From: a phage | Sequence record: PQ724392.1 | Length of the DNA: 64,000 bases | Strand: one strand, 5' to 3' | In this document: positions 39,590 to 43,162 of the stretch, in pieces | How positions within the stretch are numbered: position 1 is the stretch's first letter | How the letters are laid out: the number at the start of each line of letters is the position of its first letter | The notes under the pieces: model-generated | Databases searched by the model: none | Told to the model about the DNA's origin: nothing | The model's input: the letters and a program-made list of their open reading frames with translations, nothing else | Program-made: the position numbers and the translations under genes

Positions 39590-40336
39590 ATGATTTTATC
39601 CGGAAGAACTGTTGATGAACTCAATGAAAAAGTCCAGGCTGCCTTGGCTAATAATTGGTATTTGTTTGGTTCTACTATGGTGTTGCCGAATACTCCTACG
39701 GATAGCAAAGAGCGTTTTTTCCAAACTATGTCCAGCTCGGAAACTCAGATACCGGGCCCGCCTGGTCCAAAAGGAGACCCGGGTGTACCAGGACCAAAAG
39801 GAGACCCAGGCGGGGATGGAAAGTCTTCTTATCAGATATGGCTTGACTTGGGAAATACAGGAACTGTTGATGATTTTTTAACTGATACAGCAGGAAAGAG
39901 GGAAAAATCCGAGGTGTTTTGGAGTGGTATAAACGTTCTATTAACTAATGGTGTGACTTCAAACATAATTAGTATTTTAAAGGGGATTCCGCCGACTGCA
40001 GGGACTCTATCTCCGTTTTTTAGAACCACTGATGATAAGTTGTGGCCATATAACCAAGACAGAAGCCTAATGTTTAAACTCAACCTTATTGGTAATTTTA
40101 CAGGAGCCTCGCAAGCTCGAAGTATAACATTAAATTTCGTTGGAACCAACGGAAACACTTATATACAGAATCGTCCGGAAAATGCTACAGATATTTTGTC
40201 TTTTACAACGTTCTTTAGCATTGATAAAGATGGGGCAATGGCAACCAATGGTACAGCTATAACTGTTATGCCAAATGGCGGCAACTTTACAATAACCTCT
40301 GCATTGTTAGTAGCCGAACAAACAGTGACTTCATAA
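39590..40336 (+). CDS. collagen-like repeat protein with C-terminal globular domain, plus-strand
   Basis: ATG 39590 preceded by AAGGAGAAAG; eight G-X-Y triplets (GPPGPKGDPGVPGPKGDPGGDGKS); followed by hairpin + T-tract; only sizeable gene antisense to its neighbours. Confidence 0.6.
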   Translation: MILSGRTVDELNEKVQAALANNWYLFGSTMVLPNTPTDSKERFFQTMSSSETQIPGPPGPKGDPGVPGPKGDPGGDGKSSYQIWLDLGNTGTVDDFLTDTAGKREKSEVFWSGINVLLTNGVTSNIISILKGIPPTAGTLSPFFRTTDDKLWPYNQDRSLMFKLNLIGNFTGASQARSITLNFVGTNGNTYIQNRPENATDILSFTTFFSIDKDGAMATNGTAITVMPNGGNFTITSALLVAEQTVTS

Positions 40337-40345
40337 ACAAAAAAA

Positions 40346-40365
40346 GGGCCAGATGGCCCTTAGAT
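40346..40365 (+). terminator. stem-loop terminator of the collagen-like gene
   Basis: GGGCC-agat-GGCCC followed by TTAGATT, 10 nt after stop codon. Confidence 0.5.
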
Positions 40366-40602
40366 TGCACTCCAAAAATTATGGAATCTTATAGTATTGA
40401 TAGCCCAGTTAACAAACCTGCGAGTTTGCTTGGGAGTTGGTTTGCATGTGTACTTGATATTGACCCGACGACCAGTTTCCCGACAGACTGCTTCGAGATA
40501 CCAGCGTCGACCTTTATTAGGTCTTCCGTATGATAAGAAGACCTTCATTTCTTCATTAACGATAATAGGAATTGTGGTTGTCAAGATATACCTCTTCAAC
40601 AA
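40360..40602 (-). CDS. small basic protein (start uncertain)
   Basis: 80-aa ORF overlapping the nucleotidyltransferase 3' end; internal Met would remove the overlap. Confidence 0.3.
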   Translation of the reverse strand: MLKRYILTTTIPIIVNEEMKVFLSYGRPNKGRRWYLEAVCRETGRRVNIKYTCKPTPKQTRRFVNWAINTIRFHNFWSAI

Positions 40603-41566
40603 ACTTGTCCCAGAACTTCATGTCCACCTTCGCAGGCATACCGTTCTTAGCAGCCTGGATGGCCAGGACTTCAACTTCATCAACAGTATTTTCCAACAGG
40701 CCTTGAACTACTTTGAAAGGCATATCACCAGCTTTTATTGCTTTAATAATAGAAGCGTTTTTGAGCGGATAAACCAGGTCACCAGTTTGATAGATTTCCT
40801 TCAGCTGATATCCAGCTCGATAAGCATGGCTCAGAGCTTTCCAGTCAATACCTTCATTCGCTTCAGCCTTACGAGCACGTTCACCATATTCGGCATCAAG
40901 TTTATTCAGAGATTGCTTGAGCTCGATTAATGACAAAGTAGTTTGGTATTTACGACCGAGAATAGTATAGAACGTTTGAGGACCTGTTTTCTCATGGTTA
41001 TGAAATATCCATTCACAGAACTCGTTTTCAGGGAGTCTGTGTTTGATATCTTCTACCTTAGTACGTCGTTGCTTAGTAGAACCATCTTCTTGATAATCGA
41101 CCCATTGTTCAGGAATCTGGTTAACAATTTCCAATACACCACGCAGTGCAGCCAATCGAGAACCTTTAACACCATATTTGGAAGCTTGCTTACGGACGTA
41201 CCCCAAATAGGCTTTCATGTTAGTTGTATAGAACCGTGAACGGTTGTCCTGAATAAACTTCCATACATCTGGTAAATCGGATTTGACTACCAGGTCAGCC
41301 GGGGTGTGAATCATATCCAGAGCAACGGTTTCGCCATCGGCCGCCAGTTTAAAGAAATATTTCAGACTATAAAGTTCATGGTCAACATCATCTTTTGTAT
41401 TTTTGGTAGCCGTGTTATTCGTGTTCAGGTTTGTATGATTCATCGCGGTTCCGAGCAGGATATCTCGCGGATGTGGAACAAAGATTTCTTTAAAATCGAC
41501 ATCAGATTCTGGGGTACTTGTTCCATAAAGATGGCTACCGAAGTAGCCTTTCATAACTGTTCTCAT
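40556..41566 (-). CDS. Pol-beta superfamily nucleotidyltransferase-like protein
   Basis: 336 aa; N-terminal GSHLYGTSTPESDVDF fits GS-x9-SD-x-D NTase signature, followed by DDVDH; ATG overlaps stop of upstream membrane ORF. Confidence 0.5.
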   Translation of the reverse strand: MRTVMKGYFGSHLYGTSTPESDVDFKEIFVPHPRDILLGTAMNHTNLNTNNTATKNTKDDVDHELYSLKYFFKLAADGETVALDMIHTPADLVVKSDLPDVWKFIQDNRSRFYTTNMKAYLGYVRKQASKYGVKGSRLAALRGVLEIVNQIPEQWVDYQEDGSTKQRRTKVEDIKHRLPENEFCEWIFHNHEKTGPQTFYTILGRKYQTTLSLIELKQSLNKLDAEYGERARKAEANEGIDWKALSHAYRAGYQLKEIYQTGDLVYPLKNASIIKAIKAGDMPFKVVQGLLENTVDEVEVLAIQAAKNGMPAKVDMKFWDKFVEEVYLDNHNSYYR

Positions 41567-42015
41567 TTCTTCGCCTCAAAATGGATTACTGGGCACATCT
41601 TAGATTTACGAGCTTTGATATATTGAATGAAAACATTTTCTTTAATTTCCTTTCCTTCACGTTTAGCTTTAATGCGTTCCCATTCTTTTTCTTCTTTACG
41701 TAAATCGTACCAGGCCCATAAATTCATTAGACCATACATTAGACCAAATGCTACCGTCAGAATAAGAGCCAGTGTAGCTAGTCCTAAAATAAACCCTAAA
41801 CCTAAACCGACCGGGGTGCTTAATACAAAGAAATGCTCTAATACACCTGCGCCCGCGACAGTTAATCCAAAAACCATACTACCGATAAAAACGGCACAAA
41901 CAAAACAAGCCCAAACCATTTTCCAGAAATAAGCACACAAAGAGTGTGGACGAGAATGACGGTCATAAAAACGGTCGTGGAAACGAGCGTGCCATGAGTT
42001 TGTATTGATAATCAT
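41563..42015 (-). CDS. multi-pass membrane protein, translationally coupled to NTase
   Basis: 150 aa; 3-4 hydrophobic helices; Lys/Glu-rich C-terminal tail; ATGA overlap with downstream gene. Confidence 0.45.
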   Translation of the reverse strand: MIINTNSWHARFHDRFYDRHSRPHSLCAYFWKMVWACFVCAVFIGSMVFGLTVAGAGVLEHFFVLSTPVGLGLGFILGLATLALILTVAFGLMYGLMNLWAWYDLRKEEKEWERIKAKREGKEIKENVFIQYIKARKSKMCPVIHFEAKK

Positions 42016-42026
42016 AATAATTTTCC

Positions 42027-42587
42027 TTAAGAGTTCATAGTTGGGATAACAGAGTTCAGATAAGAGACTAAAACTTTTAGCTCGTCCTTAGTAAATACCA
42101 CTTCACTTTCGCCGTCATGTCTTTGGACAATAGATAACAGGTCACGGCCGTTATGTTGATGCACAGTTAATTCAGTATTATAATCTAGTTCTTCTTCATC
42201 GCCTTCAAACGTTTCACTAGAGCGAATCAGTGCATCTTGTCCCGGAACTTTCCATTCAACTTCCGGTTTACATTCTTCCTGGAAGAGTTTGAAAATACAA
42301 TCAAAGAATTTATCAGAATCGCTAATGCTCAGGCATTCTATACCATTTTCCAGATTAAACCCATTTTCATTTTTATAGATATAAGCGTATAGCTCATCGT
42401 TAATATCGACAGGAGCACTGTTACGTCCATTGAGATAGTCAGCTCTATCCAAAACCATTAAATCATAAAGTGGTTTAATATCTTGGATAGTCAGTACGAT
42501 TTTATCGTCTTCTTGACAAAGCTCAATTGCGTTATTAACCACTTCAGCAGTCAGTTCGCCAAACAATTCAGTTGTTTCAATAATCAT
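42027..42587 (-). CDS. strongly acidic hypothetical protein
   Basis: 186-aa ORF with large excess of Asp/Glu over Lys/Arg. Confidence 0.45.
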   Translation of the reverse strand: MIIETTELFGELTAEVVNNAIELCQEDDKIVLTIQDIKPLYDLMVLDRADYLNGRNSAPVDINDELYAYIYKNENGFNLENGIECLSISDSDKFFDCIFKLFQEECKPEVEWKVPGQDALIRSSETFEGDEEELDYNTELTVHQHNGRDLLSIVQRHDGESEVVFTKDELKVLVSYLNSVIPTMNS

Positions 42588-42904: not shown

Positions 42905-43162
42905 TCATCTCATGCTCCTGTGCCAACAATTTCTTGGTTCACGTTTAAAAATTTCATCATGCATTGATTGACAACCAACACAATATATCACACCTTTAAT
43001 CGCTTGTCTCCGCGCTTCAGGAATTTTTTCGTCGCAGTCAAAACAGAATTCAGCAGACTCCCTTTCAACTGCAACTTGTGCTCGTGCGTGAACGATAGCG
43101 GCTTGGACAACCGCTTCCATCTCTAACTGTTCAGCACCATCTTTTGTAAATCCAACAGCCAT
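42905..43162 (-). CDS. zinc-ribbon protein
   Basis: 85 aa with CFDC ... CVGC pairs. Confidence 0.4.
   Translation of the reverse strand: MAVGFTKDGAEQLEMEAVVQAAIVHARAQVAVERESAEFCFDCDEKIPEARRQAIKGVIYCVGCQSMHDEIFKREPRNCWHRSMR

Follow-up and report, generated by a model that had tools for sequence, protein, structure and literature searches.

The stretch of phage DNA analysed here (sequence record PQ724392.1; 64,000 nucleotides, referred to below as the window) belongs to a T4-like phage of the Tevenvirinae. On its minus strand an open reading frame (ORF) at 41566..40556 encodes a 336-residue protein that is the ortholog of T4 NrdC.11, within the phage subfamily of the RlaP nucleotidyltransferases (NTases) of the Pol-beta superfamily. 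The feature is already known, having been named, annotated and assigned to a family. The protein is probably an accessory RlaP-type RNA 3'-end nucleotidyltransferase that would act with Pnkp and the 5'-phosphate RNA ligases in rescuing tRNAs that have been cut and trimmed, and the neighbouring genes would be functionally unrelated to it. An RNA substrate and a repair role are suggested by the biochemistry of bacterial RlaPs and by the genome contexts described in the literature.

The region shares 96% DNA identity with Escherichia phages pEC-M719-6WT.2 and ECML-359 and 85-90% with Gaprivervirus and Dhakavirus phages such as RZ, SP18, VR7 and QL01, and phage P896 has a deposited protein that is 99% identical to the 336-residue product. 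The initial annotation of the locus did not recognise this protein as the product of a T4 gene; in fact it shares 81% identity with T4 NrdC.11 across all 336 residues. RefSeq records of RZ, SP18, VR7 and QL01 already label the gene and its upstream neighbour 'nucleotidyltransferase' and 'membrane protein'. The protein matches the Pfam family RlaP (PF10127) with 44.4 bits (E 2e-11), well above the gathering cut-off of 23 bits, and phrog_388, 'nucleotidyltransferase', at 1.9e-129, which bears out the earlier placement in the Pol-beta superfamily. Eight divergent full-length homologs were scored against PF10127 as well, and each of them exceeds the threshold (31.8-67.1 bits). By tblastn the gene was located in 1,514 phage records, in 1,439 of them over most of its length. 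A word-indexed search returned 2,519 homologs, and a precomputed PF10127 hit accompanies 120 of 120 among the matches listed; an exhaustive comparison with the representatives of 50%-identity clusters yielded 3,096 at E <= 1e-3. Of the 150 representatives listed, the majority align nearly end to end with the NTase, so that the entire architecture is conserved, beyond the motif alone.

Public entries for homologs of the NTase (GenBank, UniRef) contain annotation errors, many reading 'thioredoxin' and one 'HNH homing endonuclease'; the former label has probably spread from the gene name nrdC.11. Two T4-like phages, ECD7 and SFHK24, match the NTase in two pieces that together span 65% of the query at ~43% identity, which suggests a rearranged or decayed copy.

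The N-terminus of the protein reads MRTVMKGYFGSHLYGTSTPESDVDF, in which G10 and S11 are followed by nine residues and then by S21 D22 V23 D24. The GS-x9-SD-x-D motif singled out by the initial annotation is thus present, and its conservation shows that it is not a chance occurrence. In an alignment of 89 family members, 34-82% identical to the 336-residue protein, the invariant residues (89 of 89) are G10, S11, G15, S21, D22, D24, Y131, K243, H247, R250, P267 and G280. D60, D62 and D84 are conserved in at least 90% of the same members, and a separate alignment of 26 N-terminal domains shows no variation at D60 and D62. Because these two aspartates are invariant or nearly so, the DDVDH stretch at residues 59-63, which had been put forward as a possible third acidic residue, is a reasonable source of it and probably carries the third catalytic acid. 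The protein combines the features that define the Pol-beta superfamily, namely the hG[GS] turn, the [DE]x[DE] pair, a third carboxylate and the alpha/beta NTase core fold.

An initial AlphaFold2 (AF2) model, built from 27 close homologs, had a predicted local distance difference test score (pLDDT) of 74.7 and gave weak fold matches. It was superseded by a model based on 89 diverse homologs with a pLDDT of 94.1 and a predicted template modelling score of 0.82. This second model consists of an NTase domain (residues ~1-135), a connecting helix, a beta-rich insert (147-210, with strands 154-158, 164-168, 184-191, 195-202 and 205-208), a helical domain (213-307) and a terminal helix (316-335). Deletion of residues 147-210 lengthened the match to the RlaP profile from positions 25-141 to 25-198 of 249, with a score of 47.4 bits. 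Since the match extends once the insert is deleted, the C-terminal domain is RlaP-like and the insert is a feature of the subfamily. Apart from the insert, the domain order of the model resembles that in the published description of the PfRlaP crystal structure, in which the terminal helix packs back on the NTase domain.

The solved structure nearest to the model, at the level of the fold only and from PDB-copy search results that do not include PfRlaP, is the Hailong protein HalB. Other structure matches are the ANT, LinB, GlnE and DrrA nucleotidyltransferases. The C-terminal bundle of the model matches many HEPN-like helical bundles and also resembles the substrate-binding domains of the KNTase type. 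Sequence searches of the PDB gave no meaningful match, whether the query was the protein by itself, either of two full-length profiles or a profile of the N-terminal domain, which means that HalB and PfRlaP cannot be aligned with the phage protein at the sequence level. HalB reportedly primes on a C-terminal tyrosine. A comparable priming tyrosine was considered for the phage protein, whose own clade ends in ...NSYYR, and was dropped, as the tails are not conserved among the 150 cluster representatives. The elements of the NTase gene are as follows.

40556..41566, minus strand: RlaP-family nucleotidyltransferase, T4 NrdC.11 ortholog, 336 residues (PF10127, phrog_388)
41495..41539, minus strand: codons 10-24, GSHLYGTSTPESDVD, the G-S helix-turn and the first two catalytic aspartates, D22 and D24 (invariance in 89 homologs)
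41378..41392, minus strand: codons 59-63, DDVDH, probable third catalytic carboxylate (D60 or D62) at the start of a beta-strand (conservation; model strand 61-67)
40937..41128, minus strand: codons 147-210, beta-rich insert of the NrdC.11 subfamily that interrupts the RlaP-like domain order (model strands; profile extension on deletion)
40559..40936, minus strand: codons 211-336, C-terminal helical domain and terminal helix, with the invariant K243, H247 and R250

T4 classically counters the anticodon nuclease PrrC through RNA repair with Pnkp and Rnl1. Nucleases of the RloC type excise the wobble nucleotide as well, so that plain religation is no remedy (PMC12776372). Since 2006 the orthologs of nrdC.11 have been known to be conserved in T4-like phages and to match the nucleotidyltransferase group COG3541 (PMC1524935). 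PF10127 owes the name RlaP to Burroughs and Aravind (cited in PMC12776372), who chose it because operons with RNA ligases contain some of its members. In jumbo phages the distribution of RlaP parallels that of RNA ligases, and the restoration of nucleotides lost from RNA ends before ligation was predicted (PMC7824862). A preprint of December 2025 showed that two Pseudomonas RlaPs, PfRlaP and PaRlaP, add 1-2 nucleoside monophosphates to RNA 3'-OH ends and not to DNA or protein (PMC12776372). According to the same source, these enzymes favour mimics of cleaved tRNA, partly rescue the aminoacylation of a repaired tRNA that is short of one anticodon-loop nucleotide, and use dATP efficiently. It also names T4 NrdC.11 as an RlaP, in cluster 5 of the PF10127 network, and points out that the 3'-OH on the RlaP product makes it a suitable substrate for 5'-phosphate ligases, those of T4 included (PMC12776372). 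The block from nrdC.11 to mobD.3 can be deleted from T4 (PMC9825161), hence the gene is accessory.

By analogy with these enzymes, the most likely substrate of the phage protein would be a tRNA half that has been both cut and trimmed by an RloC-type host anticodon nuclease. The phage polynucleotide kinase/phosphatase would heal the tRNA ends, the NTase would put back the lost nucleotide, and the phage 5'-phosphate RNA ligases would seal the break to restore a functional tRNA. The NTase would be an accessory, non-essential component of this pathway, and the membrane, MobD.1-like and small basic genes beside it would be no more than neighbours transcribed together with it in the densely packed nrdC-tk early region.

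Several observations weigh against such a repair role. The NTase gene of T4-like genomes does not lie beside rnlA, rnlB or pseT. The close relative RZ, whose RNA ligase 1, RNA ligase 2 and PseT ortholog (76% identity with T4 PseT) speak for such a role, carries these genes more than 55 kb from the NTase, and no RNA ligase or Pnkp gene was found within 20 kb on either side of its NTase homolog. Similarly, none occurs within 4.5 kb of the NTase homolog at 39 divergent viral loci, where the recurring neighbours are NadR-like/Nudix, NAMPT, PRPP synthetase, antiholin, SPFH, cytosine methylase and UvrD-type helicase genes; a gene of the CCA-adding type is present, ~4 kb away and within the 4.5-kb range, at only three of the 39. 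In addition, the biochemistry of RlaP is known from bacterial enzymes of another sequence cluster and from a preprint, and the insert of ~60 residues, which is absent from the Pfam model, could alter the choice of substrate. Finally, HalB, the nearest solved structure in PDB-copy searches from which PfRlaP is absent, makes DNA oligomers and is not an RNA-end enzyme.

In favour of the role, the unrelated Rheinheimera phage Barba19A has the gene order CCA-adding enzyme (PolyA_pol head and HD domains), 139-residue protein, NTase; no tRNA genes were found adjoining this NTase homolog. Overall, gene context backs a tRNA-related role in a weak and anecdotal manner, and the functional inference depends mainly on family membership. 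Of the same 39 loci, 10-13 have NAD-salvage genes (NAMPT, NadR-like cytidylyltransferase/Nudix) no more than 4.5 kb from the NTase homolog, and four have a PRPP-synthetase-like gene in that range. In Barba19A, genes for NAMPT, PRPP synthetase and a macro-domain protein are ~13 kb from the NTase homolog.

Between 40360 and 42587 the NTase gene is the third of four co-oriented minus-strand ORFs, which encode proteins of 186, 150, 336 and 62 residues in that order. The remaining elements of this unit are listed below.

42027..42587, minus strand: acidic MobD.1 homolog of the y05I family, 186 residues (Pfam T4_y05I_N 1.8e-36, T4_y05I_C 1e-19; phrog_1502)
41563..42015, minus strand: basic membrane protein, 150 residues (phrog_944 'membrane protein' 1.2e-55)
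41574..41577, minus strand: Shine-Dalgarno GAGG for the nucleotidyltransferase within the 3' end of the membrane gene, 7 nucleotides before the ATG (read from the sequence)
41563..41566, minus strand: ATGA overlap of the membrane gene TGA and the nucleotidyltransferase ATG (read from the sequence)
40360..40548, minus strand: DUF7279 protein, 62 residues, very basic, the last gene of the minus-strand unit (Pfam DUF7279 3e-09; phrog_8921 6.4e-34; isoelectric point (pI) 11.3)
40344..40361, minus strand: terminator-like hairpin and T-run that end the minus-strand unit (terminator scan: 7-bp stem with 5 GC pairs, AAGGGCCATCTGGCCCTT then TTTTTGTTTA)

The initial annotation paired the NTase with the 150-residue membrane protein and proposed a module of defence, counter-defence or exclusion. 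The membrane protein has a pI of 9.5 and hydrophobic stretches at ~25-60 and 61-101 (Kyte-Doolittle windows of at least 1.6 starting at 25-48 and 61-83). It matches no Pfam, NCBIfam or PADLOC family above threshold, a result that does not include a direct comparison with HalA, and a homolog search returned solely close, unnamed phage relatives. In its family the hydrophobic core is flanked by two short conserved motifs, N-terminal SWH...P.SLC.YFWK and C-terminal IKARK.K.CP.I.F, with one conserved cysteine on each side.

The linkage of the two genes was surveyed at 78 related viral loci (contigs) using a hidden Markov model (HMM) of the membrane family and a range of 6 kb. The membrane gene is directly adjacent to the NTase in 13 loci; in 33 it lies upstream on the same strand at a distance of 0.3-2.6 kb, usually with 1-3 genes between, and in 32 it was not found within the 6-kb range. 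In T4 the homing endonuclease gene mobD fills the slot between mobD.1 and nrdC.11 (PMC2988022), and neither tblastn nor the family HMM detected the membrane gene in T4 at 46-58 kb. The latter result also ruled out T4 NrdC.7 as a homolog of the membrane protein. Aeromonas phage CC2 carries the membrane homolog at 223.9 kb and the NTase within 62-75 kb, ~150 kb apart, and the distant NTase homologs of Klebsiella phage Miami, a Vibrio schizo-T4 phage and Rheinheimera phage Barba19A have no membrane-gene neighbour. In phage records, tblastn found the membrane gene in 892 as against 1,514 with the NTase, a count limited by the rate at which the membrane protein diverges. The gene order of an Acinetobacter T4-like phage (Zn-finger gene, membrane gene, small gene, NTase) indicates that the synteny of the two genes is old within the Straboviridae, as expected from a generally conserved gene order. 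The membrane gene is not an obligate partner but a frequently displaced ordinary neighbour.

The four-nucleotide ATGA overlap was described correctly (bases 41566..41563), and the annotated coordinates of RZ contain the identical overlap. It is unremarkable in the window, where 21 of 119 same-strand junctions have an overlap of this size in a crude gene call. In related loci the NTase start overlaps whichever stop codon lies upstream, be it that of the membrane gene, of a soluble protein of 140-185 residues or of an ORF the size of a homing endonuclease, usually as ATGA, and many of them retain GAGG or GGAG before the NTase start irrespective of the upstream gene. The overlap reflects genome compaction and not a two-protein machine.

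These data bear directly on the idea that the NTase makes or modifies a nucleotide ligand to which the 150-residue membrane protein responds, the proportion of the two being fixed by coupled translation, in the service of signalling, exclusion or a toxin-antitoxin function. The overlap, the internal Shine-Dalgarno sequence, the upstream same-strand position of the membrane gene in 46 of the 78 loci and in the Acinetobacter phage, and the precedent of Hailong, in which an NTase is paired with a membrane effector, would all accommodate it. Nevertheless, the linkage evidence makes such a module very unlikely: T4 retains nrdC.11 with mobD in place of the membrane gene and has no homolog of the latter across the 12-kb region, the two genes are separated or lack each other within range at most of the loci surveyed and differ in their record counts, they are far apart in CC2, the distant Miami, Vibrio and Rheinheimera homologs stand without such a neighbour, and the start overlap persists with any upstream gene. 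Moreover, neither protein fits a defence-system model. A Pfam scan of the 336-residue protein at E <= 0.1 gave just RlaP, DUF1409 and NTP_transf_2, the last with 14.1 bits, below its cut-off of 21; no SMODS, CD-NTase or OAS family appeared, and at the same E-value none of the four proteins matches any PADLOC defence model. Membership of the CD-NTase/SMODS/OAS (CBASS) group, the signalling family suggested originally, is not supported by these results. Nor is the MNT-HEPN (type VII) toxin-antitoxin assignment, likewise raised at the outset, since NCBIfam MntA scores 13.7 bits, far below its cut-off of 60, and no HEPN toxin gene adjoins the NTase, whose neighbours encode the membrane and DUF7279 proteins. 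Even less credible is a variant confined to the Gaprivervirus/Dhakavirus-like clade, in which the NrdC.11-type enzyme would have a role instead of, or besides, RNA-end repair: it would make a short nucleic-acid or nucleotide product acting via the coupled 150-residue protein or a host HalA-type channel, as a phage-encoded mimic or decoy of an NTase-membrane immune pair of the host. What survives of the module proposal is the broad notion of counter-defence, in the altered form of mending RNA that anticodon nucleases of the host have cleaved; the NTase-membrane module is largely refuted, as the protein belongs to a characterised family, RlaP, without conserved linkage to the membrane gene.

That a protein of RlaP/HalB-like fold acts on something other than broken RNA (an oligomer of DNA or nucleotides, a protein, a small molecule) is a rather unlikely explanation, with more in its favour. 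In one form, the enzyme would resemble HalB in making short oligomers of DNA or nucleotides, perhaps a decoy by which an effector of the HalA type in the host is held in repression; in another, it would nucleotidylate a host protein, for instance a toxin of the HEPN RNase kind, or a small molecule. Going by the names of its mutant entries (D21A/D23A), HalB has its catalytic aspartates at the same N-terminal position as D22 and D24; HalB is also the nearest solved fold, and the subfamily has its extra insert. The efficient use of dATP by bacterial RlaP, the likeness of the C-terminal bundle to HEPN and KNTase substrate-binding domains, and the presence of ANT, LinB, GlnE and DrrA among the structure matches point in the same direction. 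On the other hand, family profiles reveal no sequence link to HalB or to any other PDB chain, whereas RlaP is matched at E 2e-11; the extreme C-terminus is unconserved across the family, so there is no evident conserved priming tyrosine of the HalB kind; and the low MntA score and the lack of a PADLOC match apply here as well. Repair of RNA 3' ends by an accessory RlaP is the reading we prefer.

The first of the four genes encodes, as described earlier, a strongly acidic protein: the 186-residue MobD.1 homolog has a pI of 4.15, with 40 aspartate and glutamate residues versus 14 lysine and arginine residues, and its counterparts in phages SP18 and VR7 are labelled mobD.1. Farther upstream in the same minus-strand unit, 42905..43162 encodes an 85-residue C4 zinc-finger protein of the DksA/TraR type (zf-dskA_traR 6e-09; phrog_54), so that zinc-finger gene, membrane gene and NTase follow one another in the order found in the Acinetobacter T4-like phage. 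The DUF7279 gene starts 7 nucleotides past the NTase stop, and a homolog is located directly downstream of the NTase in about one third of related loci. The hairpin at 40344..40361 serves the convergent plus-strand gene as well. This gene (39590..40336) encodes a 248-residue protein with a collagen-like G-X-Y run and a tail-needle-knob domain of the Sf6 type (PF16532 3.2e-32; phrog_1030); it is the sole plus-strand gene amid a long run of minus-strand early genes and occupies the position of T4 nrdC.10. The tail-needle-knob gene is found in RZ, vB_YenM_P8 and EAWsc9, and it is not annotated in SP18.

The residual value of these results is as a pointer to the NrdC.11-type RlaPs of ~1,500 sequenced phages; otherwise they change little. 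Should NrdC.11 restore the wobble nucleotide that RloC removes, it would complete a long-proposed phage counter-measure. The closeness of the fold to that of HalB is worth remembering as the RlaP family becomes characterised.

Among known systems, the minimal NTases of the KNTase/ANT/LinB and MNT types share with the phage protein an NTase domain followed by a helical bundle and the hG[GS]...DxD signature; they differ from it in that the 336-residue protein falls below the NTP_transf_2 and MntA cut-offs and has no HEPN toxin gene as a partner. HalB, the NTase of the host HalA-HalB anti-phage defence, makes oligodeoxyadenylate (PDB entry title; review). HalB (PDB 9dbh, 9dbj) and the phage protein both have their catalytic aspartates at the extreme N-terminus, and each has a membrane protein gene as partner or neighbour. 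In contrast, the two are 12% identical with no match at the profile level, HalB has 217 residues as against 336, the NrdC.11 family has no conserved C-terminal tail, and the linkage of the 150-residue neighbour is not conserved.

The closest counterpart is T4 NrdC.11 itself (NP_049709; COG3541/PF10127), which has the same length, motif and C-terminal tail at 81% identity and whose gene occupies the corresponding place in the nrdC-tk region, downstream from mobD.1 and by the nrdC.x genes. The surroundings differ in that the upstream neighbour is mobD in T4 and the 150-residue membrane gene here, and downstream T4 has nrdC.10 where the window has the DUF7279 gene and the convergent tail-needle-knob gene. 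The bacterial RlaPs, PfRlaP and PaRlaP of RtcB-RtcA operons, are likewise PF10127 proteins with, as in the model of the phage protein, an NTase domain containing three conserved acids, a helical domain and a terminal helix, and their involvement with RNA repair enzymes is predicted, as it is for the phage protein. They belong to cluster 1a whereas T4 NrdC.11 belongs to cluster 5 (PMC12776372), and the phage protein differs further in its beta insert of ~60 residues and in not being encoded beside an RNA ligase. The ligases of the phage require a 3'-OH, a need that fits the RlaP product better than RtcB does.

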